DNA from: an uncultured virus (IMG/VR IMGVR_UViG_3300008117_008405)
Lineage: Duplodnaviria; Heunggongvirae; Uroviricota; Caudoviricetes
Virus record (IMG/VR): IMGVR_UViG_3300008117_008405
Length of the DNA: 54,430 nucleotides
Direction: 5' to 3' (one strand)
Position numbers and translations under genes: made by a program. Under the pieces are notes generated by a model. The model did not search any database. It was given only the letters and a program-made list of their open reading frames with translations, and was not told the origin of the DNA. Below are positions 8,452 through 54,242 of the stretch, in pieces. Positions within the stretch are counted from its first letter, which is position 1; each line of letters begins with the position of its first letter.

Positions 8452-8514
8452 TTGGCTGGCGTACATATGGTATGATTGTGTGTGGCATTTTGTGCTTTCA
8501 AAAGGAGAAAGATC

Positions 8515-8841
8515 ATGAAAAGTTTCCAAGCAAGACAAGGTGATATCTATTTCAAGGCTTGCAATAAGCCAGATATCACCAAAATGAAAAAGAAAACCGA
8601 TGGCATATTTGCCTATGGTGAAGTCACGGGTCATGCTCACCGGCTGACAACTAACATCTCTGACTGTGAATCCTATGTAGATGAAAACGGAGATATCTAC
8701 ATTCTCTCCGATAAAGAGATGCAAGTTGGACACGATGAGCACAATGTAATCACTTGTCCTCCTAATACTTGGATTTGTGTAAGCCGTCAGAGGGAATATG
8801 ATCCGGCTGCTGCTGAAAAAGAGCGCAGAGTTGCTGATTAA
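8515..8841 (+). CDS. Conserved His-rich small protein (RQGD...GEVTGHAH...HDEH...RQREY), usual partner of DUF6745
   Basis: AGGAG SD then ATG 8515; conserved motif string. Confidence 0.7.
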   Translation: MKSFQARQGDIYFKACNKPDITKMKKKTDGIFAYGEVTGHAHRLTTNISDCESYVDENGDIYILSDKEMQVGHDEHNVITCPPNTWICVSRQREYDPAAAEKERRVAD

Positions 8842-39238: not shown

Positions 39239-39661
39239 ATGGAAACGCAAACCAAGAGGGGACATAACAAGTCAGCCCTTGCCAAGCCTAAAAAGGAAAA
39301 GCTGCTTAAACTCGCAGCGCAAGGCAAGCCCCGCCCTAATTCAAAAAAGCACCCGCTAGGAATGTCCCTCAATAAGTACATCTGCAAGTCTGGAACTTGC
39401 TACGATGCCGAATTCGATCAACAAATACGCAAGCTGGCTCCACATTGGTTTGTGAACCAAGCTGAAGAAAATAAAAAACAATTGATAGAATTAGCTAAAG
39501 CTATTCCCAATCAGAGAAGGCCAAAGTTTAAAGAAACCAAGCTGGGTACCGTCTTGAAGTTCTACACCACACCAACTGCCTCTTCCTACGATCCAGAATT
39601 CACTAAGAAGGTGAAAAAACTAGCTCCTTGGTGGTTCAGAAAGTCAACAAAAAATGCTTAA
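39239..39661 (+). CDS. 'LAPHWF' repeat protein, 2 repeats, no N-cap
   Basis: Two ~54-aa KK.L..LA...RP...LG..L..Y......YD.EF...I.KLAP.WF units. Confidence 0.85.
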   Translation: METQTKRGHNKSALAKPKKEKLLKLAAQGKPRPNSKKHPLGMSLNKYICKSGTCYDAEFDQQIRKLAPHWFVNQAEENKKQLIELAKAIPNQRRPKFKETKLGTVLKFYTTPTASSYDPEFTKKVKKLAPWWFRKSTKNA

Positions 39662-40316
39662 TAGCAAAAAAATTATCAGCGCTGTCATTAAAGCAAGAAT
39701 GGATTATAAAAATAATGTTTTATCAAAAGATATACTTGATTCTACACATGAATCTTTTTGGATAACTCAAAATAATGCTGATTATAAAAAAGAAAAATTG
39801 ATAGAGCTAGCCAAAAAGAATGCTAAAAGGCCGATTAAAAGAACAAGTGTGCTTGGAAATGCATTGTGCAACTACACAAGTCCTGACAAGGCAACTTATG
39901 ATGCCGAATTTACTCAGGAAATCAAAAGGCTAGCTCCACATTGGTTCCAAAAATCAAGCGATAGCGCAAAGGAATCCCTGCTCAAGCTAGCAAAAAAGAA
40001 ATGTCCCAAACCGAAATACACATCATCGCTTTACAAAAAGCTGATTGAGTACACAAGTAAATCAAGAAGTAGCTATGACGCAAAGTTCCACAGTATAATT
40101 CAAAAACTTGCTCCACATTGGTTTGTCAACACTAGCGAGACTAAGAAGAAAGATTTGCTAGAATTGGCCAAAAAAGGTGGAGCGAGACCTAGGCCGAAGC
40201 TTCATGAGTTGGGTTATGCGCTGCAAAGTTATTGTAAACCTTCTGCAAATGTGTATGACCCAAAGTTTGTAGCTCAGATCAAAAGGTTAGCCCCGCATTG
40301 GTTTCGTTCTGTTTAA
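39654..40316 (+). CDS. 'LAPHWF' repeat protein, N-cap + 3 repeats
   Basis: Cap KAR.DY....L......THESFW, then three repeats. Confidence 0.87.
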   Translation: MLNSKKIISAVIKARMDYKNNVLSKDILDSTHESFWITQNNADYKKEKLIELAKKNAKRPIKRTSVLGNALCNYTSPDKATYDAEFTQEIKRLAPHWFQKSSDSAKESLLKLAKKKCPKPKYTSSLYKKLIEYTSKSRSSYDAKFHSIIQKLAPHWFVNTSETKKKDLLELAKKGGARPRPKLHELGYALQSYCKPSANVYDPKFVAQIKRLAPHWFRSV

Positions 40317-40339
40317 TTTTTTTACAAGGAGGATTCAAT

Positions 40340-40819
40340 ATGCATTCTGAAAAGTGTCTTAATTTTTTGCTTGGCAAAGATTTTACCGCTTCTGGATACG
40401 ATTATGATCAACTTCATAAGTGGTCAAACGATGCTTGGGAGAATCACCATGATTTCATTCAATGGTTGTTTCCTCTCAACGAACCATCAGCGCATAATCC
40501 AAATGGACCAGTATTGTCCAAAGAAGACTATGACCAGATTAAGGCTAGCCCCGAACTTACAAATGCTATAGTAAAAAACTATGAGAGATTTTTGAAGTAC
40601 GCTGGTATTAAAAGATTCCAAGATGGGCTGGACTTTTTTGACTATCGAAAAGACTTTTGGGAAACCCCAAATCATAATTGGCTTAGAATTACCAGAGTTC
40701 TGAAGAGTCTGAATCTCTGCGGACTCCATGATAAAACCCAAGAATTCTGGGCTTTCCTTAAAGACACTCCAGTAACAGACGGAACTAAGGCATATTGGGA
40801 AATAGCAGCAAAAATCTAA
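40340..40819 (+). CDS. OGFr N-terminal (opioid growth factor receptor conserved region)-like protein
   Basis: E..HDFIQWLFPL.E.S..NP..P.L and HN.LRITRVLKSL; AAGGAGG SD. Confidence 0.8.
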   Translation: MHSEKCLNFLLGKDFTASGYDYDQLHKWSNDAWENHHDFIQWLFPLNEPSAHNPNGPVLSKEDYDQIKASPELTNAIVKNYERFLKYAGIKRFQDGLDFFDYRKDFWETPNHNWLRITRVLKSLNLCGLHDKTQEFWAFLKDTPVTDGTKAYWEIAAKI

Positions 40820-40834
40820 GGTGGAGGATAAAGC

Positions 40835-41905
40835 ATGGACTTCATCGAATTCATTCGCAGCATGGTTCCAATCGCTGAAGAAATAGTTACAGAGGATAAA
40901 GACGCTTTGAAACTATTTCATGATGCAGAGGGAGAAGATTACAGGCCGGTTACACTTAGCCCAACTCTACTTTACAACACTAGTGAAGCACAGAGAAAGT
41001 CTTTGCTTGACCTTTATGTTATGGGCGCATACTCCATCGCCCACAATCTAAGTCAGCAGGGAGTAAAAATACTCAACATCCCAGAAGAATACACCGAAGG
41101 CTTGCTATCAACTGATGTAAACCTGACTTTAAATGACTACAGACAGCCGTTTGAAGAACAAATTGTTAGAATTCCAGATAACTTTTGGGATTTCATCACA
41201 GACTCATGGAAAGAGAAGAACCAAAAGCTTCTCAAATTAAAGTACATCGTGGTAACACATACAACTTATGCTAATTCAGATAAAAAGTATATTCGTTGCA
41301 TTGCTGGTGGAGAGAATTTCTTTGATCAGAATAGAGCAACACTTTTACACCTCGGCAAAATTAGCACTAATGAAAAGACAATCGAAGAACTGCTTAGAGA
41401 TCAAATGGATGTTACAAAGCATGAAGAATTAAAAGGCATGTCGGAGGAAAACTATCCTCTTTTGACTAGGTTCGCATTAAATGCATGTCTTCTTTCAGTT
41501 GATAACACCAAAGCTATCGGATATCAGAATCCAGATTATGTAAATAAGATGCAAGAAGGGCTTAAAAAAGCCAAAAAAATGTCTGATAAGGCGAGGAAAT
41601 CGATTGAGTCGCAAATTAAATTTGCTCCGTTTTTGCTGACTATCAATCAACAAACGATCACACATTACAATAATCGACCAAGTGATTCTGATGGTACTTC
41701 TGGAATTATTATCAAGCCTCACCATCGTAGAGGATACTGGCGCAAACAATGGTTCGGGCCAAAAGCCAATCAATCCAGTAAGTATGTTTGGATACAACCT
41801 GTTTTCGTAAACAAACACTTATTCCAAGGAAAGATGATTGATACAGTTGTCAATATCGATTTAAATACGCCTATTGAAAGGCTAGATGGAACTGGAGAGA
41901 AATAA
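40835..41905 (+). CDS. Conserved phage protein with C-terminal PH.RRG.WR motif
   Basis: PHHRRGYWRKQWFG......VWIQPVFV; GGAGG SD. Confidence 0.7.
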   Translation: MDFIEFIRSMVPIAEEIVTEDKDALKLFHDAEGEDYRPVTLSPTLLYNTSEAQRKSLLDLYVMGAYSIAHNLSQQGVKILNIPEEYTEGLLSTDVNLTLNDYRQPFEEQIVRIPDNFWDFITDSWKEKNQKLLKLKYIVVTHTTYANSDKKYIRCIAGGENFFDQNRATLLHLGKISTNEKTIEELLRDQMDVTKHEELKGMSEENYPLLTRFALNACLLSVDNTKAIGYQNPDYVNKMQEGLKKAKKMSDKARKSIESQIKFAPFLLTINQQTITHYNNRPSDSDGTSGIIIKPHHRRGYWRKQWFGPKANQSSKYVWIQPVFVNKHLFQGKMIDTVVNIDLNTPIERLDGTGEK

Positions 41906-41906
41906 T

Positions 41907-42401
41907 ATGATTGAATTATTTTCTGCCGAAGATATCATTCAGCACATTAATAAAGCAAGAATCCGATTTTCAGAGGGAAAGCTCAACAAAGAAGTTTTTA
42001 AATGCACTATACCAGAATTTTGGATGTTTCCTGAAAATACAGCAGACATAAAGAAAAAGCAATTGTTACAAATGGCAGAAAAAAAATTGCCCAAACCTTC
42101 CTATCGTAACCATCCGCTGGGAAGGGCTTTGAATACTTACACCAATAAATCTTGGAACACTTACGACCCTGAGTTCACAAAGAAAATAAAAACACTTCGG
42201 CCCGAATGGTTTCAAGATCGCACAAAAAATCGGAAGAACAAATTACTCAGGCTTGCAAAATCTGGAGCTAAGAGACCAAACCAAAAGAGACATCCTCTGG
42301 GCTATAATCTGTCATCTTACACTTCAATCAAGTCAGAATGTTACGATGAAGAGTTCACGAACCAATTAAAATTATTGGCTCCCCATTGGTTTAAAAAATA
42401 A
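41907..42401 (+). CDS. 'LAPHWF' repeat protein, N-cap + 2 repeats
   Basis: GGAG SD then ATG 41907; cap KARIRFSEGKL...TIPEFW. Confidence 0.87.
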   Translation: MIELFSAEDIIQHINKARIRFSEGKLNKEVFKCTIPEFWMFPENTADIKKKQLLQMAEKKLPKPSYRNHPLGRALNTYTNKSWNTYDPEFTKKIKTLRPEWFQDRTKNRKNKLLRLAKSGAKRPNQKRHPLGYNLSSYTSIKSECYDEEFTNQLKLLAPHWFKK

Positions 42402-42470
42402 AGTTGTAATTATTTTGTTTTTTGGTATATTAAGGCTGTTTGGTAATCATATTATTGAAAGGAGTTCAAC

Positions 42471-42656
42471 ATGAAACGAGTTATGGTTGGCAATTACACT
42501 TACGAAACTGATCTTGACCTTAAAGTAGGTGACAAGGTGGTTCTGCCCACAGCCTATTATCTGCGTGATGTAAAAGGTGCAACTTGGGTTGGGGAAGTCA
42601 CTAATCTTCAGTCCAACTACAACGGCCCCTGTGAAAAAGTCATCGGAAAGGCGTAA
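42471..42656 (+). CDS. Small hypothetical protein
   Basis: AAGGAG SD; YTYETD..L.VGDKVV.P. Confidence 0.65.
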   Translation: MKRVMVGNYTYETDLDLKVGDKVVLPTAYYLRDVKGATWVGEVTNLQSNYNGPCEKVIGKA

Positions 42657-42660
42657 GACC

Positions 42661-42855
42661 ATGAACTCCGTACTTCAACTTCGTCGCTGGGTTGCATCTC
42701 AACTCAAACAACTTGAAGATAATGATGATGTGTCATATGTTTTGAGATACATACGACGAAAAACAGATCATCCATGCTTCACTCAAGATACTTCAGAGGG
42801 TTGGCATAAGTTCTTAAAAACAATCGATTGCAGAAAAATTCTGCTCGAAAAATAA
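42661..42855 (+). CDS. Small hypothetical protein
   Basis: ATG 4 nt after the upstream stop; ends 1 nt before the next ATG. Confidence 0.55.
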   Translation: MNSVLQLRRWVASQLKQLEDNDDVSYVLRYIRRKTDHPCFTQDTSEGWHKFLKTIDCRKILLEK

Positions 42856-42856
42856 T

Positions 42857-43681
42857 ATGATTATTGAAATACTGAAAGAGAATAAACTCACCATTGGGTT
42901 TATTTATACTCTTTCAATACTTCAATACACCCTTCATGCTTTGCTCCCATTCCTTCTGGGTAAAGCTATTGATGGGCTATTACAAGACGATAAGTCCAAC
43001 CTTGTTGTTCTTGTAATAGCCAATGCCCTAAGCATATTCCTTGGTTTTTATTTGAAAAGATACGACACAAGAGTCTACATGGCAATATTTGCCCATAAAG
43101 CTATAAAAGCAATTCAAATTCTCCGAAGAAAAAATGTTGTTCCTTCCAAAATAGCCAGCAGATATCAATTGGTTGGTTATTACTCTGATTTCTTTGAATA
43201 CTCATTGCCACAAGCAATTTCCGCATTCATAAAAGCTATGACCTCCATGGTCATGCTCTTTGTCACAAATCCGATTATAGGACTCATCAATACTTTAATT
43301 TATCTCATAACATTGTTCATTCATCAAAAATGCTCACGGCTTATCCAAAAACAAGATATGGATATCCAACACATAAAAGAAGATATTGTTCAGAACATCA
43401 TGGACAACAAGGAATATGAACAGCCAATACATTCGTTAAGTAAGTTCTACATAAAAAAATCGTATATAGATGCTACAAATTTCCTTATAAATGATTCTCT
43501 AGCTCTTATTATGCATTTGTCTACTATATTATTGCTGGTATACATCCATCCATCCATAGGAATGGTCACATCGACTCTGATGTATGTTGACCAACTGTAT
43601 GGAACCACCTACAGTATATTTTACTTCTTGCTCTTCGTGAGAGGGGTTGAGAATACCAATAAGTTTATTAATTCTGATTAA
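42857..43681 (+). CDS. Stand-alone ABC-transporter six-transmembrane domain protein (ABC_membrane_3-like)
   Basis: P..LG.AID.L, R.YDTR.Y-like motif, multiple TM helices; no ATPase nearby. Confidence 0.65.
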   Translation: MIIEILKENKLTIGFIYTLSILQYTLHALLPFLLGKAIDGLLQDDKSNLVVLVIANALSIFLGFYLKRYDTRVYMAIFAHKAIKAIQILRRKNVVPSKIASRYQLVGYYSDFFEYSLPQAISAFIKAMTSMVMLFVTNPIIGLINTLIYLITLFIHQKCSRLIQKQDMDIQHIKEDIVQNIMDNKEYEQPIHSLSKFYIKKSYIDATNFLINDSLALIMHLSTILLLVYIHPSIGMVTSTLMYVDQLYGTTYSIFYFLLFVRGVENTNKFINSD

Positions 43682-43692
43682 AAGGAGTAATC

Positions 43693-44001
43693 ATGTCTAC
43701 AAGCACTTTGGAAAAAACTGATACAAAAACAAGAAAACAACCTCCTTATCATGTCATAATCCTCAACGATGATGATCACACTATTGAGTATGTTGTTAAA
43801 TTATGCTCATCTATCTTTGGTCACCCAGTAGAAAAAGGAGTTGAAATAGCAAAAGAAATACACTTTCAAGGTAGAGCTATTGTTTTTACCGGATCGTTAG
43901 AGGTTGCTGAACTAAAGCAAGAACAGGTCCATTCTATGGGTCCAGACCCTTTAGTAGCTAAATGCAAAGGCTCAATGACAGCTGTTATAGAACAGGCATG
44001 A
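43693..44001 (+). CDS. clpS: ClpS N-degron adaptor
   Basis: YHVIILNDDDHTIEYV, IH..G.A.V, AELK; AAGGAG SD. Confidence 0.92.
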   Translation: MSTSTLEKTDTKTRKQPPYHVIILNDDDHTIEYVVKLCSSIFGHPVEKGVEIAKEIHFQGRAIVFTGSLEVAELKQEQVHSMGPDPLVAKCKGSMTAVIEQA

Positions 44002-44017
44002 AATCACTATATAAAAC

Positions 44018-44203
44018 ATGCTTACATTCACACAATGGCTTGCTGAATACAATGATCCCAGAAGCGGAATGAAATCCCGTTGGTCTACGAAATATAAGAA
44101 AAGTATAAATTGTAGTAATCCCAAAGGATTCAGCCAGAAGAACTATTGCAAGAGAAAAAAAAGAGGCGGTAAGTATAAAAATGAAGGGCTGTGTGAGGGC
44201 TGA
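44018..44203 (+). CDS. Small basic phage protein with capsid-targeting-like N-terminus
   Basis: MLTFTQWLAE; WS.KYKKSINCSNPKGFSQK.YC. Confidence 0.7.
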   Translation: MLTFTQWLAEYNDPRSGMKSRWSTKYKKSINCSNPKGFSQKNYCKRKKRGGKYKNEGLCEG

Positions 44204-44280
44204 CGCTCTTAATCTTCACCAATCACCAAAGAATATCCGAGTCTGGAAAGAGCTAAAACGACTCCATATATTCACCAGCC
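44187..44280. ncRNA. Candidate structured RNA with pseudoknot
   Basis: GGCTG/CAGCC, GAATAT/ATATTC and GAGTC/GACTC stems plus crossing GCTCTT/AAGAGC. Confidence 0.4.
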
Positions 44281-44290
44281 AATCAAAATA

Positions 44291-45634
44291 TTAGAGTATC
44301 TTCCTTGACCTTTTCCTTAAAACAAAACTCTCGCCAAATACTGGTTTTTTCTTTTCTCCAGTAATTGCAGGCATCTGACCAATCTTCTTGGGCGCTGGAC
44401 CCAAATCACGACCATACTGCCTGAACATACTGTCTACAAAATTTTGATCCTCATAATAGTTTCTAATGAGATTCAAGATAACCTCTATGCTTTTAGCAGC
44501 ATTTTCCTTTCTCATGGGTTCTTCCAAATAGCTTTTGAATGTTTTAAGCTCGTACTGAATATCGTCTGGTCTTATTCGATTTATAAGCTCACCGAGTCTG
44601 TTCCCTTTAATTTCCATATCCATCGGGCTATTAACATAAAATAAAAGCTCTTTATAATGATTTGAAGTAAAGTTGTTTAAAAATTTTTCTCCCAAGAATT
44701 TCTTAAACCAAGGCACAGCATCATTAGTCCTACCTAAAATATAAGAAAACAAATCAAAAGCCTCAGTTAGAGTAATGTTTTTTAAAGTAGACACCACTTT
44801 TGGTCCCAGAATTTCAATAAATTTATTTCTCCTGTTATCACGCATCAAAGTAGTTAAATCTGTGGTGGTGAGCTTTTCGAATTCAGACTTGTCAAGTTTT
44901 TCTGCCTCATCAGTTTTGAATAATAACATATCTTGTATTCTGTCAGCAGAAAGCAAATCTGATCTGACAGGATAAATCTTACTTGATTTGCCAGCCTGCT
45001 TGTAAATATCCCTGATTTTGGCAGTATCGGTCGAAGTTATCCACGCAGACGGGTTTTGAAGCTCTTTCATCTTATCGGTATCCAACGCATTTGCTACAGC
45101 ATAACCGATCATCGTTATACTACCGTCATTGACAGGCTCATATTTGACTATTGTGTAACCATGAAGATCACGATACAAAACCCCCTTTACCTTTTCCCTT
45201 ATCAACATGGGCACGAAACTTTTGCTCGTAGTTCTAGCTTGTCTCAAATCCAAAGTCTCTAAATCATCCTCTTTCAAATCAGCAATTAAATGAGGATAAC
45301 TATCCTGTAATTGTTGTGATAACTTCCACCTGTCACCTTTTACATACTTCGCTACATTAGGAGGAATTATGATATACTTATCTAAATCTGTTATTTTGAA
45401 TTTAATAATAAAAGGACCATACATGCCCATGCTTGAATGAAATTGACTTTCTAATGAAAAAGTAGCATACAAACCACAACCATAGAGACAGCCAGCACCT
45501 TCCCCTGATTTGAAATCGCTGTTTAATATGTTTGTGATAGATTCAGAAGTAGCGTTTGCACCAGCACGATGGAATATTGTTGCCGTCTTATTAGGGAATA
45601 TCTCTTCCATCATCAACCAATTAGAAAATTCCAT
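44291..45634 (-). CDS. Putative ADP-ribosyltransferase (PARP/ART-like N-terminal domain) with capsid-targeting-like N-terminus
   Basis: MEFSNWLMME; TIFHR, GAGCLYGCGLYAT, YG..I.K; TAAATA at 45659-45664 (- strand). Confidence 0.55.
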   Translation of the reverse strand: MEFSNWLMMEEIFPNKTATIFHRAGANATSESITNILNSDFKSGEGAGCLYGCGLYATFSLESQFHSSMGMYGPFIIKFKITDLDKYIIIPPNVAKYVKGDRWKLSQQLQDSYPHLIADLKEDDLETLDLRQARTTSKSFVPMLIREKVKGVLYRDLHGYTIVKYEPVNDGSITMIGYAVANALDTDKMKELQNPSAWITSTDTAKIRDIYKQAGKSSKIYPVRSDLLSADRIQDMLLFKTDEAEKLDKSEFEKLTTTDLTTLMRDNRRNKFIEILGPKVVSTLKNITLTEAFDLFSYILGRTNDAVPWFKKFLGEKFLNNFTSNHYKELLFYVNSPMDMEIKGNRLGELINRIRPDDIQYELKTFKSYLEEPMRKENAAKSIEVILNLIRNYYEDQNFVDSMFRQYGRDLGPAPKKIGQMPAITGEKKKPVFGESFVLRKRSRKIL

Positions 45635-45755
45635 ACCATCTCCAATTTAACATTTACTTATTTAGCGGATACAGTATCATAATTCCAGAATTCCAGCGAG
45701 GCTTCTTAGCTACCCATATAAGATTGGTGTAAGTACTAATTCGGAGATATAAACA

Positions 45756-46802
45756 ATGAAATTGCTCAAACCTCTGATTATCATTCAAGCTATTAATAAC
45801 GCACGACATCTCAATTCTCACGGATTACTACCAAAAAAACTCCAAAATATCACTAACCCAGAATTCTGGAAGGCACCACCGAAGACATCAATACTCAAAA
45901 AGAAACAAATCATCGAACTTGCCACAACAGGCAAGCCCAAACCAACCACTCGACTTCATCCACTCAAAAATGCATACAGAAATTATGCAAACCCCGCCCA
46001 TCGGTCTTACGATCCCATTCTCATGCAGCAACTCCAATCCATCCGACCAGACTGGTTCTTCCAGTCGTCAAATCAAAAAAAAGAAGAACTAATCCAATTG
46101 GCCAAATCCAAACAGCCAAGACCTAAACAAAAGAAACACCCTCTCGCAGCAACCTTGAATAACTATATCAACCCTACCCATGGTTCTTACGACCCGACCT
46201 TTACCAAAAAAATCAAATCCTTAGCCCCTCTTTGGTTCGTCACACGCTCAACCATCGCAGATCAAAAGAAACAAAAGCTTATCAAAATGGCTCAATCTAA
46301 TCAGCCCAGACCACATCAAACAAAACATCCATTAGGAGCACCTCTGACAACCTACATGAATAAAAACAGTAGATCGTATGATCCAGTCTTCACTAATAAA
46401 ATTAAAACCCTCGCTCCAGATTGGTTTACAAAAAAATCAGATATCAAAAAGCAACAACTTATTAAGCTTGCTAAATCAAAAGCCAAAAAACCCATAAACT
46501 TATTGCATCCATTAGGAGCACCACTATCCTACTACACCACTCCCAAGTCATCCGCATACGACCCCACTTTCACCAAACTGATTAAATCTATTAACCCAGA
46601 ATGGTTCATCTCCAGAACCGATAATGCTAACCAAAAGAAATTAAAATTGCTCCAAATTGCAAAAGCAAAACAACCTAAACCAATTAAACCATCTAAACTA
46701 TATTTGGCTTTAATAAGATATATCAACAAATCTAATTCATCTTATGACCCAATCTTCACCAAGAAAATCAAAGCCATAGCACCCCATTGGTTCAGAAAGT
46801 AG
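45756..46802 (+). CDS. 'LAPHWF' repeat protein, N-cap + 5 repeats (array gene 1)
   Basis: 38-aa cap, five 53-54-aa cores, 6- or 9-aa linkers; GGAG SD. Confidence 0.9.
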   Translation: MKLLKPLIIIQAINNARHLNSHGLLPKKLQNITNPEFWKAPPKTSILKKKQIIELATTGKPKPTTRLHPLKNAYRNYANPAHRSYDPILMQQLQSIRPDWFFQSSNQKKEELIQLAKSKQPRPKQKKHPLAATLNNYINPTHGSYDPTFTKKIKSLAPLWFVTRSTIADQKKQKLIKMAQSNQPRPHQTKHPLGAPLTTYMNKNSRSYDPVFTNKIKTLAPDWFTKKSDIKKQQLIKLAKSKAKKPINLLHPLGAPLSYYTTPKSSAYDPTFTKLIKSINPEWFISRTDNANQKKLKLLQIAKAKQPKPIKPSKLYLALIRYINKSNSSYDPIFTKKIKAIAPHWFRK

Positions 46803-46849
46803 GCGAAACTAGAACTAAACAGTATTATTCAATAACCAAGGAGGATAAT
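46802..46849 (+). promoter_or_regulatory. Array junction 1: GGCGAAACT-N14-TTA + AACCAAGGAGG SD
   Basis: 48-nt spacer nearly identical to junctions 2 and 3. Confidence 0.75.
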
Positions 46850-47521
46850 ATGCAACTATTAAATGCTACCACAATTTTAACTGCTATATCTAAAGCCAGA
46901 AAAGCATATAAAAAAGGAACTTTAAGCCATGAAGTTGCCAAGATTACTGTGAGAGATTTTTGGCTTGCAACAGATAAACAAGTAGATATCAATAAAAAAC
47001 AACTTATCCAAATGGCAAAAAATGGAGAAAATCGACCCAACTTTAGAAAACATGATTTAGGTTCAAGCCTTTATCGGTATACTAAACAATCTAGCAATTG
47101 CTATGACCCAATCTTCACCAAGAAAATTAAAGCTTTTGCCCCTCATTGGTTCATACACACCAGTACTATCAAAAAACAACAACTACTCAAATTAGCTAAA
47201 TCCAATCAACCTCGACCCAATAGAAGGAAACATCCACTAGGACAAGCATTCTCTTCATATACAAGAACATCACATAAAAGTTATGATCCTATATTCACCA
47301 AACAAATCAAATCTTTAGCTCCCTATTGGTTCATACACACCGCTAATACCAAAAAACAACAACTCATCCAAATGGCTAAGAATAAAGAATCTAGACCTAG
47401 TAATAGAATAGATGGCCTAGGAAAAGCATTGAATAGATACACTACTAAATCAGGTACATCCTACGACCCAGACTTCACCAAGAAGATAAAATCCTTAGCT
47501 CCCGCTTGGTTCAGAAAGTAG
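46850..47521 (+). CDS. 'LAPHWF' repeat protein, N-cap + 3 repeats (array gene 2)
   Basis: True start ATG 46850 after AAGGAGG; 223 aa. Confidence 0.9.
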   Translation: MQLLNATTILTAISKARKAYKKGTLSHEVAKITVRDFWLATDKQVDINKKQLIQMAKNGENRPNFRKHDLGSSLYRYTKQSSNCYDPIFTKKIKAFAPHWFIHTSTIKKQQLLKLAKSNQPRPNRRKHPLGQAFSSYTRTSHKSYDPIFTKQIKSLAPYWFIHTANTKKQQLIQMAKNKESRPSNRIDGLGKALNRYTTKSGTSYDPDFTKKIKSLAPAWFRK

Positions 47522-47568
47522 GCGAAACTCACACTCCACAGTATTATTTAATAACCAAGGAGGATCAT
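47521..47568 (+). promoter_or_regulatory. Array junction 2: GGCGAAACT-N14-TTA + AACCAAGGAGG SD
   Basis: GGCGAAACTCACACTCCACAGTATTATTTAATAACCAAGGAGGATCAT. Confidence 0.75.
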
Positions 47569-48438
47569 ATGAAACTATTGAATGCTACAACAATATTAAT
47601 TGCTATAAGAAAAGCCCGAAAAAAATATGCAAACGGAACCCTCAATAAACATATCCAATCATCAACCGTAGAATCATTCTGGTTTGAATTCGAAAAATCA
47701 TCTATCATCAGAAAAAAACAACTCATTCAAATGGCAAAAAACGGAGAAAATAGACCACATTCAAAAAAACATCCACTAGGAACATATTTCAATCAATACA
47801 CACATAAATCAAGTTCATCCTATGACCCAGACTTTACTCGCAAAATCAGATCAATAGCTCCACATTGGCTCATCAAACAAGCAGATATTGTAAATAAAAA
47901 GAAACAAGAATTAATTAAAATCGCACAAAACAAAGAGCCTAGACCAATTACCAGAAAACATCCGTTAGGTGTTGTATTATCTCACTATACTACTCAATCA
48001 AGAAAAGCTTATGATGCACAATTCACACAAAAATTAAAGAAGTTAGCACCTCATTGGTTCGTCAACAAATCAGATATCGCAAATCAAAAAAAACAACAAC
48101 TTATTCAATTAGCACAAAACAAAGAGCCTAGACCAATTACCAGAAAACATCCATTAGGTTTAGTATTATCTCACTATACTACTCAATCAAATAAAACTTA
48201 TGATGCACAATTCACACAAAAATTAAAGAAGTTAGCACCCAATTGGTTTACCGTATCATCAGATATTAAAAAACAACAGCTTATCCAAATGGCAAAAAAC
48301 GGAGAAAATAGACCCAACTCCAGAAAACACCCATTAGGAAGGGTGATGAAAGAATACATAAGCACTACTTCAAATTCTTACGACCCCATATTCACCAAGA
48401 AGATCAAATCCATAGCTCCCCATTGGTTCAAAAAGTAG
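47569..48438 (+). CDS. 'LAPHWF' repeat protein, N-cap + 4 repeats (array gene 3)
   Basis: True start ATG 47569; 289 aa; repeats 2 and 3 nearly identical. Confidence 0.9.
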   Translation: MKLLNATTILIAIRKARKKYANGTLNKHIQSSTVESFWFEFEKSSIIRKKQLIQMAKNGENRPHSKKHPLGTYFNQYTHKSSSSYDPDFTRKIRSIAPHWLIKQADIVNKKKQELIKIAQNKEPRPITRKHPLGVVLSHYTTQSRKAYDAQFTQKLKKLAPHWFVNKSDIANQKKQQLIQLAQNKEPRPITRKHPLGLVLSHYTTQSNKTYDAQFTQKLKKLAPNWFTVSSDIKKQQLIQMAKNGENRPNSRKHPLGRVMKEYISTTSNSYDPIFTKKIKSIAPHWFKK

Positions 48439-48485
48439 GCGAAAATACAACCCAACAGTATTATTTAATAACCAAGGAGGATTAT
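48438..48485 (+). promoter_or_regulatory. Array junction 3: GGCGAAAAT-N14-TTA + AACCAAGGAGG SD
   Basis: GGCGAAAATACAACCCAACAGTATTATTTAATAACCAAGGAGGATTAT. Confidence 0.72.
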
Positions 48486-49346
48486 ATGAAACTATTGAAT
48501 CTTAGAGCCATTTTGAGAACCATAAAAGAAGCCCGAAAAAAATATACAAACGGAACCCTTGATAAAGATATTCAATCAGCCACCGTAGAATCATTCTGGT
48601 TGGACATCAAAAAATCACCTATCATCAGAAAACAACAACTTATCCAAATCGCAAAAAACGGAGAGAATAGACCCAACTCCAGAAAACATCCTTTAGGTAT
48701 CCATCTCTGTCAGTATACTAACCAATCTGGCAAATGCTATGACCCTGTTTTCACTAAGAAGATCAAATCTATCGCCCCTCATTGGTTCATAAACGCCACT
48801 ACTATCAAAAAACAACAACTCATCCAATTAGCTAAATCCAAACAACCAAGACCTAGTAAATCAAAACACCCTCTAGGAGAAGCATTATCTTGCTACATGA
48901 GAACATCACATAAAAGCTACGATCATAAATTCACCAAACAAATCAAATCCCTAGCACCCCATTGGTTTATTAAATCTTCGACTATCAAAAAACAACAACT
49001 CATCCAATTAGCTAAATCTAAACAACCAAGACCACATGTAAAAAACCACCCTTTAGGACATGCTTTCAACTCCTATATCAGCAAATTAAATAGTTCCTAT
49101 GACCCAGTCTTTACCCAAAAAATGAAATCCTTAACACCTCATTGGTTCGTCAGCCAATCAGATATCGCAAATCAAAAAAAACAACAAATTATACACATGG
49201 CAAGGACTAAACAAAATAGACCCAATAAAAGTAAACATCCTTTAGGAAGAGTTTTCAGTAATTACACAAGAACAAATGGTGATTGCTACGACCCCATATT
49301 CACCAAGAAGATCAAATCCATAGCTCCCCATTGGTTCAAAAAATGA
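48486..49346 (+). CDS. 'LAPHWF' repeat protein, N-cap + 4 repeats (array gene 4)
   Basis: True start ATG 48486; 286 aa. Confidence 0.9.
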   Translation: MKLLNLRAILRTIKEARKKYTNGTLDKDIQSATVESFWLDIKKSPIIRKQQLIQIAKNGENRPNSRKHPLGIHLCQYTNQSGKCYDPVFTKKIKSIAPHWFINATTIKKQQLIQLAKSKQPRPSKSKHPLGEALSCYMRTSHKSYDHKFTKQIKSLAPHWFIKSSTIKKQQLIQLAKSKQPRPHVKNHPLGHAFNSYISKLNSSYDPVFTQKMKSLTPHWFVSQSDIANQKKQQIIHMARTKQNRPNKSKHPLGRVFSNYTRTNGDCYDPIFTKKIKSIAPHWFKK

Positions 49347-49840
49347 AACAACTCGATGTCAATAAAATACTCGATGCCGTTAAAAAGGCACGATACCAAT
49401 ACGCAAACGGCACACTCAACCAAGATATCCAAAATTCCACCACACCAGAATTCTGGTCTCAAACAAGAAACTCAACCCTCAAAAAACAACAAATAATCCA
49501 ATTGGCCAAATCCAATCATCCTAGACCACACTCCAGAAAACACCCGCTAGGCTTCGCACTCAATAATTACACCGACCCCAGAAAATCAACCTATGACCCC
49601 AAATTCACCAAACAAATCAAATCGCTAGCTCCTCATTGGTTCATCACAAGATCAGGTATAGCATCCGGTAATAAACAACAACTACTCCTAATGGCTAAAA
49701 ATAAACAACCCAGACCTAATTCCAAGACCAATACCCTAGGCAGAGCTTTAGTCAACTACACAAATAATACCGGAAGATGTTACGACCCTATATTCACTAA
49801 CAAAATCAAAAAAGTAGCTCCCCATTGGTTCAAAAAATAA
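49343..49840 (+). CDS. 'LAPHWF' repeat protein, N-cap + 2 repeats (array gene 5)
   Basis: ATGA overlap with gene 4; 165 aa. Confidence 0.88.
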   Translation: MKQLDVNKILDAVKKARYQYANGTLNQDIQNSTTPEFWSQTRNSTLKKQQIIQLAKSNHPRPHSRKHPLGFALNNYTDPRKSTYDPKFTKQIKSLAPHWFITRSGIASGNKQQLLLMAKNKQPRPNSKTNTLGRALVNYTNNTGRCYDPIFTNKIKKVAPHWFKK

Positions 49841-49866
49841 AAGCCCTGCCATCCCTGACAGGGCTC
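49838..49866 (-). terminator. Intrinsic terminator between convergent genes
   Basis: - strand AGCCCTGTCA-GGGA-TGGCAGGGCT followed by T-run. Confidence 0.75.
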
Positions 49867-49887
49867 TACATATCAATAAACCTACTC

Positions 49888-50259
49888 TCAATCCTTCTTC
49901 CTATCCTCTTTACCCTTCCCTCCCCTGAACCTCTCCATCAACTTCTTCTGATAAGCATCAAACTCCTTCTCATTCAACTTCCCATCCTTGTCCTCGTCAC
50001 CCTTCTGCCAACGATCCCACATGTTACTTCCCTTCGATAACTCCTCCTTAGATAACAACCCATCCTTGTCCTTGTCATGCAACTCCAATAACTTCTTCCA
50101 ACTCAATGGACCCCTCTTCCCCATAGGTGGTCCACCCTTCCCACCCTTCATAGGTGGAGGCCCCTTGTCAGGCCCCTGTGAAGGAGCAGGCTCCTGTGCC
50201 ACTAATATCCCCATGCCACATGCCAATAAAAACATAGATAATAACTTATTCATACTCAT
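49888..50259 (-). CDS. Secreted EF-hand protein
   Basis: Signal-peptide-like N-terminus, G/P linker, DKDKDGLLSKEE and DEDKDGKLNEKE loops. Confidence 0.85.
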   Translation of the reverse strand: MSMNKLLSMFLLACGMGILVAQEPAPSQGPDKGPPPMKGGKGGPPMGKRGPLSWKKLLELHDKDKDGLLSKEELSKGSNMWDRWQKGDEDKDGKLNEKEFDAYQKKLMERFRGGKGKEDRKKD

Positions 50260-50370
50260 CTCGCTTTCTTACAAATCCCCACTATTAGGGATAGTTACTT
50301 AGATGCTTTATTAAGAACTATGAATCAATAATTTTCCCAAAATAAATAACTTTTCTATATACCCGACCCT

Positions 50371-50414
50371 CCCATATCCACACATGCCCATATCCACAAG
50401 CTCCCATATCAACA
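50371..50414 (+). repeat. Three CCCATATC(C/A)ACA repeats at 16-nt period, DnaA-box-like
   Basis: Copies at 50371, 50387, 50403; ATATCCACA is 8/9 to TTATCCACA. Confidence 0.7.
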
Positions 50415-50598
50415 TGTACATATTAACACCTGTACAGACTATCATTAGTGTACAAAAGATCATGAAATTAGAAATATAAAATAGTATTACAATCGATTGT
50501 TATGGTTTGCAATTAATAACAATGGAATATCAAATTTAGGGTTTAGGGGGCCTAGCCTCTTTTTTATCGAGAAAAATAGTCTTTTATTATTGGACTCC

Positions 50599-50636
50599 AA
50601 AAATAATAAGCGCCTTCCGACATCTCAGAAGGCGCT
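50599..50636 (-). terminator. Intrinsic terminator after the Hsp20 gene
   Basis: AGCGCCTTC / GAAGGCGCT stem followed by TATTATTTTT on the - strand. Confidence 0.8.
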
Positions 50637-50681
50637 CCATTGTTATTTTTTGAATTTATTTGTTATGGCATAACAATCAAA

Positions 50682-51137
50682 TTAAAGAGATTTAATTTGT
50701 ATTTTTTTAGCGAGTTGTTGGGGGGAGGCCTTATTCTTCCAAGTAAGAGTGAGAAGACCGTCTTGGAGAGTAGCGGAGTCCGGTTCTCCTTCAATATTCT
50801 CGGGGAGGGGAACCACCCTTTCAAATGAGCTACCTCGAATCTCCCTGTAATAATAAACAGAGTCATCCGATCCTTTATAGACATTATTCATTCGACCGCT
50901 GATTGTCACACAGTTGCCGGGACCGTACTCAAGAGTCAAGTCTTCAGATTTAAGACCGGGAATGGAGAAAACTAATTTCGTTTCACCAGCAGTCTGATAT
51001 AAATTCAACTTTGGATATCCAATATTAGCCTTGGCCGTATTCAGATTGGACTTGTTGAGAAAGAAATCATCAAAAAATTTGTTGAAAGCGGATTCAACTG
51101 GAAAGAAAAGATCATCCCTTCTGGGAATCAGATTCAT
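50682..51137 (-). CDS. Small heat-shock protein (Hsp20/alpha-crystallin)
   Basis: YP.LN, PG...EDL, ISG, REI..SSFER...LP, A.L.DGLL.L; GAGGTG SD then ATG 51137. Confidence 0.92.
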   Translation of the reverse strand: MNLIPRRDDLFFPVESAFNKFFDDFFLNKSNLNTAKANIGYPKLNLYQTAGETKLVFSIPGLKSEDLTLEYGPGNCVTISGRMNNVYKGSDDSVYYYREIRGSSFERVVPLPENIEGEPDSATLQDGLLTLTWKNKASPQQLAKKIQIKSL

Positions 51138-51289
51138 AAAACACCTCTTTTGTCTTAATAGCACCCTACAGGTATGCTCGATGGTCACCATGATCCATCT
51201 AACTATTATACGAGCGTCATTGTAGAAAATTTCACAAAAAATTTTGCTAGTAACAGACCTACCTTATAGCTTATTAAAATATCAGTTTA

Positions 51290-51940
51290 TACCACAGTAT
51301 ACAGGTAAAAGAATACCTGTAGGTCCGATTTTCCCTATATATTATATATGTGCGGTCGTTCGGCAGGTTTTCCGTTACCTGTATAGTACATTCGGAAACC
51401 GGCCAAAAGCCAAAAATGAAAAGGTGTAGGTTAGAGTTTTGATATCACTAGATAGGTAAATGATTAGGTATGTAGTGCGAGTAGTTAACCTATGGACTGG
51501 GGCTGTCAAAAGGTTGATTTTTTGTAAAAAAAGGGTATTGACAGGATTATAAAAATAGGTTTGGCATAACCTGTATAGTACAGTAGAAGTGCTAATGGCA
51601 AACCTGTGTACTGGAAAAATGGGTAAATTATGGACCTAGTCAACAGCTAAAGGCCTAATTATAGCATGTAGTGTACAGCTATAGCCCCAAATAATAAGCT
51701 GTGTAGTAGAGTTTCGGATGTACTTCACAGGTATAAGGCTTTGTCCTGCTAGGTCTAGACTGGTTGTGAACTATAACAATCAAAATAACAATGGATGCCA
51801 TTTTGACAGGATTTTATCAAAATTGTAGTGAATAGGTATCGGTTTATAACCTGTGATACACCATAAAAAGCATAGTGCTCAGGTTAAGAATCGTACTTCA
51901 ATAGGTGTACAGTACATTCGATTGTTATTCCATTGTTATG
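51290..51940. repeat. Non-coding region with iteron-like repeats; candidate replication origin
   Basis: ACCTGTATAGTACA at 51377 and 51569, variants at 51298(-), 51602, 51719(-), 51849, 51903; TTGACAGGATT at 51538 and 51803; lies at the C-to-G skew switch. Confidence 0.6.
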
Positions 51941-51943
51941 GTT

Positions 51944-51969
51944 GGCGAAACTTCTGCGGGGTTTGCTTA
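51944..51969 (+). promoter_or_regulatory. GGCGAAACT-N14-TTA motif
   Basis: GGCGAAACT 51944-51952, TTA 51967-51969; AAGGAGG SD downstream. Confidence 0.65.
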
Positions 51970-52006
51970 GGGGTGTGAGTTATGAAACCCCAAGGAGGAT
52001 TGGACG

Positions 52007-52519
52007 ATGATCACTAAAGAGTTTGTTCTGGCTGGCAAGGCGATCTTCACTCTGGAGATTCCCCATGAGTGGGCAGCTGAGCATGACTGCAACGCTCACT
52101 ACACCTTCAAGGTGGTGCTCAAGCAGGGCAATGACGGCTCTAATGGGAAGCCGAAGTCCGATGACATCTATTTCGTGAACCTGTTGTCTGGTCCTGACAA
52201 CACCTCTGACTACAGCTACATTGGTGTGCTCAATAAGGGCACCGGCAATGTGGTGCTAACCCGTGCTAGCAAGATCACAAAGGATTGCATGAGCTATCGT
52301 TTGTTGAATCGTTTGTTGGCCAACCTGTGGGGTGGAACGGAGCAGAAGATTCTGGATGCGGGGTTTGATGTTCACCATGAGGGTCGTTGTGGCCGGTGTG
52401 GTCGGAAGCTTACGGTGCCCGAATCGATCAAGACGGGATTGGGGCCAGAGTGTGCTGGCCGTACACCGGGGCGGGCCAAGGATGAGGAGGAGGCAGGTGA
52501 GGACGATGTGGCGTTCTGA
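52007..52519 (+). CDS. DUF6011-like Zn-finger protein
   Basis: L.GPDN..DY.YIG; CGRCGRKLTVPESIKTGLGPEC. Confidence 0.8.
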   Translation: MITKEFVLAGKAIFTLEIPHEWAAEHDCNAHYTFKVVLKQGNDGSNGKPKSDDIYFVNLLSGPDNTSDYSYIGVLNKGTGNVVLTRASKITKDCMSYRLLNRLLANLWGGTEQKILDAGFDVHHEGRCGRCGRKLTVPESIKTGLGPECAGRTPGRAKDEEEAGEDDVAF

Positions 52520-52521
52520 TT

Positions 52522-52547
52522 GGCGAAACTTTTGATTCCCTGTCTTA
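52522..52547 (+). promoter_or_regulatory. GGCGAAACT-N14-TTA motif
   Basis: GGCGAAACT 52522-52530, TTA 52545-52547. Confidence 0.65.
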
Positions 52548-52586
52548 TTATTGTGGTTGGCAATAACAATAAGAAGGAGTGATGCG

Positions 52587-52955
52587 ATGGAAGTGAATCA
52601 AGTTGACATTCGGACTGCGTGTGACGATTTGGTTACCTTTGTGAATGAGGTGAAGAAGAGTCATTATGACAAGATGGGATATGAGCTTGGTTTGCGGGAG
52701 AAGATAGTGTGGGAGCGTTTGAGTTCGAAGTGGGTGAAATTGATTGTTCAGGATAATGGTGGGAAGGATCGTAGTGTGTATGGGTTTGTGGCGTTGCAAG
52801 ATTTTGAGACGAAGGGTTTGGGGCAGGTGAAGTTTGGTGACATTCATAAGGCAGCGACTTGGTCAGCGCCTGCGAAGCATGCACGGGGGAATGTGTTCAA
52901 TAGGGAAAGTTGGAGTTGCTGTGGGCCATATGGTATGGCTTACTTGAGGGGGTAG
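52587..52955 (+). CDS. Conserved phage protein (GDI.KAA.W.APAKHARGN family)
   Basis: AAGGAG SD then ATG 52587; SVYGFV...GDIHKAATWSAPAKHARGNVF. Confidence 0.8.
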   Translation: MEVNQVDIRTACDDLVTFVNEVKKSHYDKMGYELGLREKIVWERLSSKWVKLIVQDNGGKDRSVYGFVALQDFETKGLGQVKFGDIHKAATWSAPAKHARGNVFNRESWSCCGPYGMAYLRG

Positions 52956-53025
52956 TTGTCAACTGAAAAATTTTCAGTAGAATATCATTTGGCTGAAAAG
53001 CCTGAATATTTCATGGAGGTAGTTT

Positions 53026-53154
53026 ATGGGCAGACCGCCTAGTAAGATTCATGATCCGATTGGTTATGACGCATATTATGCTGGCAATCCTTTACTTGGG
53101 TTTATCTTTTGGGGGATTGTGATTTTTGTTATGATTAAAGGTTGTGGTGGCTAA
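53026..53154 (+). CDS. 42-aa membrane peptide
   Basis: GGAGG SD; MGRPPSKIHDPIGYDAYYAGNPLLGFIFWGIVIFVMIKGCGG; followed by a terminator. Confidence 0.6.
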   Translation: MGRPPSKIHDPIGYDAYYAGNPLLGFIFWGIVIFVMIKGCGG

Positions 53155-53176
53155 GTCGATATAAACCGATATAAAT

Positions 53177-53216
53177 AAACCCTCTTCTCTGTGGCAAACG
53201 GGGAAGAGGGTTTTTT
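53177..53216 (+). terminator. Intrinsic terminator
   Basis: AAACCCTCTTCTCTGT-GGCAA-ACGGGGAAGAGGGTTT plus T-run. Confidence 0.88.
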
Positions 53217-53426
53217 CTTACTTTTTAGACAGAGTCCGATAACGCAATTTATGTTGCATTAAAGTGGTGTTCATTTGTACACCAGTCTTAAGGTGTATAG
53301 TACATTGAATAAAAAAAATCAAGGATTGAGTAGATTAATTTTCTATTTTCGGTAATATGAGTTTGTAGGATGGTGTTGGATGCCATTCACATTTAACTAA
53401 TACCTTTGATGTAAGGAGGAAGTACG

Positions 53427-53840
53427 ATGGCTGTTGTGAAGAAAGTGGTTGATGCTCGTAAGGTGAATTCTGAGTCAAAGAAGAAGGCGATTTTGTTATT
53501 GGCCAAGAATAAGAATGAAGGTAAGCCAGCCAATCTCACGCCATTGGGAAATGCGTTGAGGAATTATTTGAGTCGTTTTTCGGCATCGTATGATCAAGCG
53601 TTTGAGCGTCAGATCAAGGCGATGCGTCCTGACTGGTTCAAGACGAACTGGACGGAGGCGGGGAAGAAGGCTTGGGCTACTCGGTTGAAGCGGGAGTTGT
53701 CCAAGAAGCGTAGTCTTGCAGCCAAGAAAGCAGCCAAGACAAGCAACGGTCTTTTAAACCGTGGAGGAAGGCGCAAGTCCTTCAGGGGCCATTATTTTCA
53801 GAAAACTTTTGATCTCGACTGGAGACTCTGGCGCTTTTAA
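53427..53840 (+). CDS. Single 'LAPHWF'-type repeat protein with basic tail; 3' end runs into a tRNA remnant
   Basis: AAGGAGG SD; KKKAILLLAK...KP...TPLGNALRNYL.....SYDQAFERQIKAMRPDWF. Confidence 0.75.
   Translation: MAVVKKVVDARKVNSESKKKAILLLAKNKNEGKPANLTPLGNALRNYLSRFSASYDQAFERQIKAMRPDWFKTNWTEAGKKAWATRLKRELSKKRSLAAKKAAKTSNGLLNRGGRRKSFRGHYFQKTFDLDWRLWRF
53742..53791 (+). pseudogene. 5'-truncated tRNA-Lys(UUU) remnant
   Basis: Anticodon arm ACGGT-CTTTTAA-ACCGT, T arm GAAGG-CGCAAGT-CCTTC, acceptor 3' strand AGGGGCC-A; no GGCCCCT 5' strand upstream. Confidence 0.65.
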
Positions 53841-54242
53841 CTTATTGGCATGAATTTTCCTATGACAATTAGCACACACACATATACATTTTGAAATTTC
53901 TTCTTCCAGTTTTTTCATACTTTTTGCGCCGACAAAATAAGAAACATTTTTGTCTTTTCCATGGAGATGATGGAAGTCTAAGCAACATGGATCGGTTTCT
54001 TTGCAGATACAGCAACCAATATTTTGTTTGAAATCATTAAATTTATCTTGAAATTTCTTGCGACATGTTTTGTCGTAGCTATAGATTCTTTCTTTAACCT
54101 CTTTCCTGTTTTTATTATTTCTGTACCAATCAACAGCATTTTGGGTTGCACATGGCTTACAGTAAGGTTGATATCCATTATATCTTTTTCCGTAATCTTC
54201 TAAATTTTTAAATTGCTTACATTTGCTACATTGTTTAGTCAC
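53754..54242 (-). CDS. HNH-type (homing) endonuclease
   Basis: N-terminal CSKC...CKPC; CCICKE.DPC.LDFHH, KC...CANCHRKIH. Confidence 0.82.
   Translation of the reverse strand: MTKQCSKCKQFKNLEDYGKRYNGYQPYCKPCATQNAVDWYRNNKNRKEVKERIYSYDKTCRKKFQDKFNDFKQNIGCCICKETDPCCLDFHHLHGKDKNVSYFVGAKSMKKLEEEISKCICVCANCHRKIHANKLKAPESPVEIKSFLKIMAPEGLAPSSTV

Follow-up and report, generated by a model that had tools for sequence, protein, structure and literature searches.

The closest described systems to the genes considered in this work were arrays of the HA (helicase-associated) domain, Pfam family PF03457. Streptomyces TtrA and TniQ target selectors were described as carrying tandem HA domains in passages of one preprint (10.1101/2024.11.13.623437), and TniQ-HA architectures were named in a figure legend of another (10.1101/2025.07.27.667033). 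The sole solved HA domain was 2KTA, a nuclear magnetic resonance structure from a putative helicase of Bacteroides vulgatus. According to its title, the article on this entry (Mills et al. 2013, reference 64 of PMC12191111) presented a structure that 'indicates domain binding to DNA'. Here we analysed a 54,430-nt stretch of DNA from an uncultured virus of the Caudoviricetes (IMG/VR record IMGVR_UViG_3300008117_008405), which we call the window. Nine open reading frames (ORFs) on its plus strand, g1 to g9 in genome order, were located within positions 39239-53840 and encoded arrays of a basic 55-residue repeat; the counts of array genes and units given below are those of the window. We consider it probable, at roughly 0.6, that these nine genes are split-off, HA-like nucleic-acid-binding tails for a phage helicase, built as arrays of a three-helix module.

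Both likeness and difference were apparent in comparison with the described systems. In the parts of these sources that concern TtrA and the TniQ proteins of telomeric and nrdD-targeting Tn7-like transposons, arrays of helical modules were likewise placed on a motor or a target selector, with recognition of DNA expected. However, the units described there were canonical HA domains present in cis, whereas those of the window were divergent and were split from the helicase into nine genes.

The repeat family and its association with SF2 helicases

A hidden Markov model (HMM) built from the units located 26 repeats in the nine ORFs, distributed as 2, 3, 2, 5, 3, 4, 4, 2 and 1 from g1 to g9, exactly as the initial annotation of this DNA had counted them. 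Each unit was 55 aa long and scored 55-102 bits. When the 26 units were aligned (A1), K3, A10, L24, Y31, Y39, D40, P52 and W54 were invariant, P17, F43 and F55 were at least 90% conserved, and the mean column identity was 60%. From A1, AlphaFold2 produced the three-helix unit that had been predicted, an independently folding module with helices at residues 2-12, 23-32 and 41-50 and a predicted local distance difference test score (pLDDT) of 95.5. The model of the full g5 protein (mb234be1fc00e) was confident locally (pLDDT 91.6) and less sure globally (predicted template modelling score, pTM, 0.61). The earlier description of the repeat as basic and lacking a visible catalytic domain also held. 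Namely, the nine proteins had isoelectric points (pI) of 9.9-11.1, net charges of +17 to +52 and 18-26% K+R, and Pfam and PHROG scans found no catalytic domain in any of them.

No family of Pfam, PHROG or NCBIfam (the last searched with g6) named the repeat. A sequence search of the PDB with the unit profile returned chance rows only (E ~1), blastn and tblastn gave no match in GenBank phages, and a pattern scan of genome contigs with P0002 yielded 19 matches, none of which was a relative. The literature searched contained no description of the motifs of the repeat and none of the nine-gene split layout. On the other hand, a word-indexed search with g6 returned 108 relatives, nearly all of them named 'hypothetical', on contigs of up to 618 kb. 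Moreover, a search of 1.84 billion representatives with the A1 profile yielded 1136 proteins at E<=1e-3, of which 432 reached E<=1e-30, and the arrays ranged from 2 to 13 units across the family. Thus, the comparison of the repeat HMM with databases, which had been suggested as a check, gave no Pfam match but 1136 protein clusters, so the repeat was not an orphan. The family is large, uncatalogued and carried mainly on large phage contigs.

Twenty of the 22 listed relatives longer than 700 aa carried Pfam ResIII, DEAD or Helicase_C domains ahead of the repeats, and the repeat is therefore literally helicase-associated. The remaining two were P0110, a helicase by BLAST, and P0109, a pure 13-unit array. 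Tandem arrays at the C-terminus of superfamily 2 (SF2) helicases, the feature from which HA takes its name, were found in the wider family; the nine genes of the window were stand-alone. The initial annotation had recognised no described family. This was true insofar as no library named the repeat, but it turned out to be a module of SF2 helicase tails and a probable distant relative of HA.

The window encoded an SF2 helicase (27357-29462, minus strand; 701 aa; Pfam ResIII and Helicase_C) that had no repeat units. Over 613 aa it shared 35% identity (E 9e-106) with P0112, a fusion protein of 1088 aa that carried eight C-terminal units. Residues 11-616 of the window helicase aligned to residues 5-587 of P0112, where the repeats begin at residue 597, and 14 further fusion proteins matched it more weakly. 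The homology ended at about residue 617 of the window helicase, right where the fusions begin their arrays. By these alignments, the window helicase is an ortholog of the helicase part of the helicase-array fusions, and we propose it as the partner of the arrays. The closest solved chains to the helicase profile (A3) were XPB/Rad25 (E 2.1e-15), RIG-I-like helicases and the Type ISP LlaGI and LlaBIII, the last two over ~550 profile positions (E 5.5e-9 and 6.7e-8). The relation to XPB/Rad25, LlaGI and LlaBIII was at the level of the SF2 core only, and Pfam found no nuclease or methylase domain in the window helicase. Its tail (residues ~617-701) contained two motifs, DWVKLYVNIFLDMHERIPT and LNAAAKKHGKIPT, each resembling HA helix 1 with a G/R-x-P after it. 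W631 was invariant in a 16-sequence helicase alignment.

Array genes adjoined the helicase gene in all four related phage loci with enough flank; outside this count were L001, located at a contig end, and L003, a near-copy of L002. In L016, a helicase 35% identical to that of the window was directly followed by three array genes. Four array genes preceded a helicase of 37% identity in L017, and L018 had two array genes and then a 1316-aa helicase-array fusion. The gene order in L002, a 494-kb IMG/VR contig, was helicase, HA array, and then an array of the window-type repeat.

Additionally, we observed half-units consisting of helices 2-3 only (LxEALExYTxPxHPEYDPEFDxQIRxLRPDWF) at the end of small, mostly acidic proteins on contigs of Planctomycetota metagenome-assembled genomes (MAGs). 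These contigs, of up to 620 kb, belonged to Tepidisphaeraceae, Pirellulaceae, Planctomycetales and Isosphaeraceae, with loci among L021, L022, L023, L025 and L026. A Korobacteraceae MAG contig had the half-unit at the start of a protein instead of the end. In these cases the motif is used in cellular genomes and outside arrays.

Relation to the HA domain and to a possible helicase partner

The repeat is HA-like, probably a distant homolog of HA and, on the present proposal, its functional equivalent, and it lies outside PF03457 as that family is defined. We call it HA-like rather than a member because the sequence, locus and fold evidence was mixed. Both HA and the repeat were three-helix modules of ~55-65 residues that occur in tandem at the C-terminus of SF2 helicases and also in stand-alone arrays. 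They had the same skeleton of helix 1, G/x-(R/K/L)-P, L-G, helix 2, helix 3 and P-x-W-(F/W), and they were found in common loci and even in common polypeptides. However, the helix-2 signature of HA was W..QR, whereas the repeat had L..Y(T/I) there, and a conserved YD(P)xF opened helix 3 in the repeat. The repeat comprised 55 positions compared to 64 in the HA profile. Both Pfam HA and the HA profile were blind to the window units, and only one sub-family, characterised by a longer loop, bridged the two.

This longer loop, RP...SKDxEE(K/R)xLG, was present in some family members and resembled the loop of HA. The profile of the long-loop sub-family (74 units) aligned to the HA profile (35 units) over its full length of 55 columns (hhalign P 9.5e-5, probability 58.6%, score 23.2). 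By comparison, reversed HA scored 7.7, and none of 40 column shuffles exceeded 14.6. The sub-family profile also matched the general family (E 5.6e-33).

Bona fide HA units co-occurred or interchanged with the repeat at two loci. In L002, a 242-aa protein had three Pfam HA units (46, 43.6 and 41.5 bits; cut-off 28.4) and shared its leader, M(F)KSYHIKAxKYLExLxGHxWP, with a 332-aa protein that had five window-type units; therefore, one array type has replaced the other. In L020, a Paludibacteraceae MAG contig, two of the three tandem array proteins began with Pfam HA half-units that matched positions 31-64 of the HA model (E 3.6e-5 and 6.2e-4), below the cut-off.

Language-model and fold neighbours added a weak link to HA. 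By language-model features, the closest named clusters in the ESM Atlas were all HA (0.84-0.80, at the level of a lead only), and the structure search there gave a TM of 0.52 to a giant-virus helicase/HA cluster. Among 48,161 chains, 2KTA ranked 12 for the unit model (Z 3.1, root-mean-square deviation 3.2, 52 aligned) and 2 for the g5 model (Z 4.2, root-mean-square deviation 4.1, 65 aligned), in both cases tied with unrelated helical segments. In the BFVD, two uncharacterised Caudovirales relatives were followed by giant-virus SF2 helicases (~245 columns, E 0.009-0.09), and the entries at ranks 9 and 20 were named 'helicase associated domain'.

The array proteins also had a possible means of contact with the helicase. 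A 45-residue leader, I..AI.KAR..Y..G.L......T...FW, was common to seven of the nine proteins (g2-g8) and recurred in 15 metagenomic relatives, with copies of the window's own proteins excluded. The profile of the window leader (22 sequences) aligned to HA positions 31-52 (P 0.0017, score 17.5; the highest of 40 shuffles scored 11.8). Helix 3 of HA was matched by the leaders in L016, L017 and L001 (MLKxWQxxxLExIxGWxxF) at E 1e-4 to 5e-3 among 29 sequences. Moreover, the helicase tail in L016 matched HA positions 23-46, and the tail of the window helicase matched positions 8-47 (E 0.031). Complex prediction for the helicase (A3) and g5 (A2) gave a weakly supportive score of 0.51 (runs 0.51, 0.51 and 0.55), while the best of three controls had 0.00; the runs agreed in at least 60% of contacts, and the partner pLDDT was at least 77. 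Of 157 solved complexes, 116 passed the mark applied to such scores, as did 2 of 215 mismatched pairs; these counts hold only roughly here, since our own alignments were used. Scores of up to 0.60 that passed the mark came from 18 of the 157 solved complexes and from both of the mismatches that passed. Docking was a likely guess beforehand because of the fusions and the synteny, but we put physical docking of the arrays on the helicase at only about even odds.

The proposal of HA-like helicase tails has a number of observations to contend with. The long-loop set behind the score of 23.2 was seeded with a motif picked for its likeness to HA, which biased the test. The general family profile (1095 units) did not match HA (hhalign probability 1.3%, P 0.039), and the HA HMM scored at least 5 bits in 18 of the 1095 units versus 15 shuffled ones, with a top of 10.2 bits. 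Pfam HA (gathering 28.4 bits) missed nine of the nine window proteins at E<=1. The structural Z-scores were low and tied with many unrelated three-helix segments, and Foldseek against the PDB returned nothing at E<=0.001 and did not list 2KTA. With respect to the partner, the window helicase was not adjacent to the arrays, being ~10 kb away on the opposite strand, and g1 and g9 had no leader. The HA matches of the window leaders (E 0.02-2) and of the helicase tail were weak, and the helicase-g5 score was a weak pass for which no interface was returned.

The following scenario would accommodate these data. The window helicase would have lost its tail, and the tail modules would have multiplied into nine separate genes. 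Their products would bind nucleic acid, most likely DNA, via the conserved basic residues K2, K3, K11, R16, K21 and K45-48, and the exposed face of helix 2 together with the two flanking loops would form a surface specific to each unit. The g2-g8 proteins would attach to the helicase through the 45-aa leader, which bears a weak likeness to HA helices 2-3, so that one motor may be given alternative binding tails. Nucleic-acid binding would be the likeliest activity, with DNA a more probable target than RNA, because of the basic charge, the helicase fusions and the contexts of HA arrays.

Variable surface of the units and competing explanations

A hypervariable helix face had been reported at unit positions 25, 28, 29 and 32, which correspond to positions 26, 29, 30 and 33 of our alignment. 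These positions were truly variable: their entropies (3.72, 2.88, 3.15 and 2.64 bits, respectively) were among the highest. All 26 units were distinct at the combined positions 26/27/29/30/33, where R, N, S, K, H and C were frequent. According to helix periodicity, the buried side of helix 2 would be lined by the conserved L24, L28 and Y31, with the variable 26/29/30/33 on the opposite, exposed stripe. However, variation was not limited to the helix face. Columns 19 (3.28 bits), 1 (2.93), 37 (2.85) and 36 and 42 (2.78) were also highly variable, and the loops 18-21 and 33-38 on either side of helix 2 varied as much as its face. The variable region is therefore a patch rather than a single helix face. 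The wider family (1095 units) gave the same picture of variability as the window.

The variable surface could be explained differently if the nine proteins were autonomous sequence-specific DNA readers, for example transcription factors, in which helix 2 of each unit recognises a short DNA word, the units are strung together like zinc fingers or TALE repeats, as the initial annotation had inferred, each paralog has a distinct site and no helicase takes part. The face residues, with their different combination in each of the 26 units and their composition, would suit such readers, as would the HA arrays of TniQ target selectors in the preprint passages mentioned above. Zinc-finger, TALE and Myb-type readers are also built by concatenating small modules with a fixed scaffold and few variable exposed residues. 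However, this was a likeness of design and not of family, and there was no sequence or fold relation to the repeat. Unlike the TALE solenoid, the window units looked like individual three-helix bundles joined by 5- or 8-residue linkers. The PDB structure-search lists contained no multi-unit match to TALE, PUF, PPR or mTERF, and all the top PDB structure matches of the g5 model (pTM 0.61) spanned one unit (~50-65 residues). Moreover, the flanking loops equalled the face in variability, no candidate target repeats were found, and the fusions and synteny pointed to a helicase and not to transcription. We consider autonomous readers doubtful.

Evolutionary rates and ortholog comparisons bear on the same question from both sides. 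Among paralogous units, synonymous sites were near saturation, with proportions of synonymous differences (pS) of 0.3-0.9. The proportion of nonsynonymous differences (pN) was about equal to pS on the helix-2 face, compared with a pN/pS of ~0.25-0.3 in the scaffold. Because of this near saturation, the ratio of nonsynonymous to synonymous rates (dN/dS) among paralogs cannot separate diversifying selection from relaxed constraint, which fits the face as well. The entropy and dN/dS check that had been suggested thus gave high entropy at the named positions but could not demonstrate positive selection. In a first, hand-picked set of 13 positional-ortholog unit pairs, the face was 0.71 identical versus 0.47-0.48 for other surfaces (Fisher p 0.004), which counts in favour of readers. 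The effect was not borne out as a general one by a broader, automatically chosen set of eight ortholog-like protein pairs (unit identity of 70% or above): the helix-2 face was identical at 96 of 144 positions (0.67), and the surfaces of helices 1 and 3 were 0.72 and 0.69 identical, so that in the pooled pairs the face was neither more nor less conserved than other surfaces.

Individual pairs behaved in two ways. In g2 and its positional ortholog P0097, 11 of 12 helix-2-face residues were kept, versus 0.38-0.43 on other surfaces; 10 of 12 face residues were identical in P0078/P0085 and 14 of 20 in g4/P0028, so that the face was frozen while the scaffold drifted. The face was replaced on a kept scaffold in P0160/P0054 (6 of 20 versus 0.74-0.89) and in g8/P0083 (2 of 8). 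Specificity residues would behave like this, with some faces frozen and others replaced, and the pattern, which falls short of proof, is consistent with such a role.

Within-population variation added little. Assembled contigs from four sequencing runs over 45756-49840 were at least 99% identical to the window, and the changes within units were too few for analysis. Among the 40 of 76 differences that were listed, several resembled cross-mapping between near-identical units or leaders. The run contigs broke into pieces of 150-1700 bp inside the arrays, with joints between units (e.g., 47982 to 48900), the cause of which may be either faulty assembly of the repeats or true recombination.

It is unlikely, in our estimate, that the proteins are non-specific polycationic nucleic-acid binders, such as histone-like, packaging or internal virion proteins coating the DNA or RNA of phage or host, with the variation between units representing drift of an unconstrained surface. 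Their pI, their content of K+R and charges reaching +52 agree with such a role, as do the conserved residues, which were mostly scaffold and basic. The near-synonymous rate of the face among paralogs and the pooled ortholog set, where the conservation of the face equalled that of other surfaces, also fit drift. However, this explanation does not account for the recurrent fusion or adjacency to one helicase family, for the conserved leader on seven of the nine proteins, or for the pairs with a kept face and a diverged scaffold. Additionally, no PHROG structural or packaging family matched.

Helicase tails are usually substrate-binding, which speaks against a protein-protein scaffold or decoy without nucleic-acid binding, e.g., an anti-defence or host-takeover factor. 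Such a factor is very unlikely, since the half-units (YTNPxHPEYDPEFDxQIRxLRPDWF) that end small acidic proteins of Planctomycetota and Acidobacteriota MAGs, unlike DNA binders, and the interleaving of the cluster with ClpS, HSP20 and OGFr-like genes are opposed by the strong basic charge of the arrays and by their likeness to HA, the binding of which to DNA is indicated by the title of reference 64 in PMC12191111.

Layout of the cluster, phage context and significance

All nine array genes were on the plus strand. The first of them, g1 (39239-39661; 140 aa; pI 10.2), had two units (aa 17-71 and 77-133) without the N-terminal leader and overlapped by 8 nt with g2 (39654-40316; 220 aa), which had the 45-aa leader and three units. 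The product of g3 (41907-42401) was 164 aa long from the ATG at 41907, with the leader and two units; a second open ATG was located at 41886. Five units followed the leader in g4 (45756-46802; 348 aa), the orthologs of which were P0026 and P0028, and three in g5 (46850-47521; 223 aa). Both g6 (47569-48438; 289 aa) and g7 (48486-49346; 286 aa) encoded the leader and four units, with units 2 and 3 of g6 being near-duplicates at a DNA period of 189 nt. There was a 4-nt overlap between g7 and g8 (49343-49840; 165 aa; leader and two units), and a protein identical to g8 (P0077) was present on 31 contigs. Finally, g9 (53427-53840; 137 aa; pI 11.1) had no leader and consisted of one unit (aa 17-71) and a basic C-terminal tail.

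Within g5, g6 and g7, Tandem Repeats Finder detected repetition of the DNA with periods of 180 and 189 nt, which correspond to the 5- and 8-residue linkers between units. The spacers g4/g5 (46803-46849), g5/g6 (47522-47568) and g6/g7 (48439-48485) were conserved and, in frame from an upstream TTG, read LVQKVGEThTxQYYxITKEDxM. Therefore, tandem duplication copied the intergenic region and the ribosome-binding site along with the gene. A scan for sigma-70-like promoters was uninformative, with 34 sites found and fewer than in shuffles (mean 43.9).

The array genes were interleaved with genes for OGFr_N-like (40298-40819), ABC_membrane_3 (42857-43681) and ClpS (43693-44001) proteins. An EF-hand protein (49888-50259) and HSP20 (50682-51191), both on the minus strand, were also located among them, and an HNH endonuclease ORF (53754-54242, minus strand) overlapped the 3' end of g9 by 87 nt. 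Directly upstream of g1 was a gene for an RCC1-repeat beta-propeller protein of 524 aa (37591-39165, plus strand), and a second beta-propeller protein, with DUF5122 repeats, was encoded at 30535-32595. The G+C content was 0.45 at 52-54 kb versus ~0.36 elsewhere in the window.

The window looked like part of a very large phage, with a Pol III alpha-type polymerase, an RNA ligase, the HNH endonuclease, an ArdC-like protein and baseplate-like lectin domains. The closest record, G001 (145 kb; CheckV completeness 33%), came from the same phage and was 100% identical to the window up to position 38969, ending just before the array cluster, and had further RCC1-like stretches of 67-84% DNA identity. 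The stretch 45756-49840 was near-intact (0.83-0.95 of sampled words) in 20 sequencing runs from 16 studies of freshwater, lake water and 'fungus' metagenomes, and none of the runs listed with it was an RNA run. The polymerase ORF (5362-7077, minus strand; 571 aa) began at position 8 of the Pfam NTPase domain and had no PHP domain. The next minus-strand ORF (7720-8742; 340 aa) belonged to no family, and the polymerase gene may be split or interrupted. Next to a glycosyltransferase were two paralogous carbamoyltransferase genes in tandem (2211-3794 and 3791-5365, plus strand; 527 and 524 aa).

HA-type modules are widespread, being found in helicases, TniQ target selectors, and giant-virus and phage proteins, and helicase-associated repeat arrays are a known kind. 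The new elements are the repeat itself, which is uncatalogued, and the nine-gene split layout, which is undescribed in the literature searched. Among the loci examined, the window was the most expanded split form, with nine genes and 26 distinct units apart from the helicase. Pfam misses this family, which comprises at least 1136 clusters and deserves its own profile in the HA clan.

It is decidedly doubtful that the nine proteins are interchangeable tails of one helicase whose 26 different units each read a distinct DNA or RNA feature through the helix-2 face and the flanking loops, providing natural, modular plug-in targeting for a translocase. A recognition code for the units is a possibility, and with plug-in targeting it could be worked out in an HA-like family. 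If the motor is indeed targeted by the arrays, this would account for the way in which large phages steer a translocase to particular substrates. In that case, the arrays would also be a compact scaffold, already diversified by nature, from which binders could be engineered.

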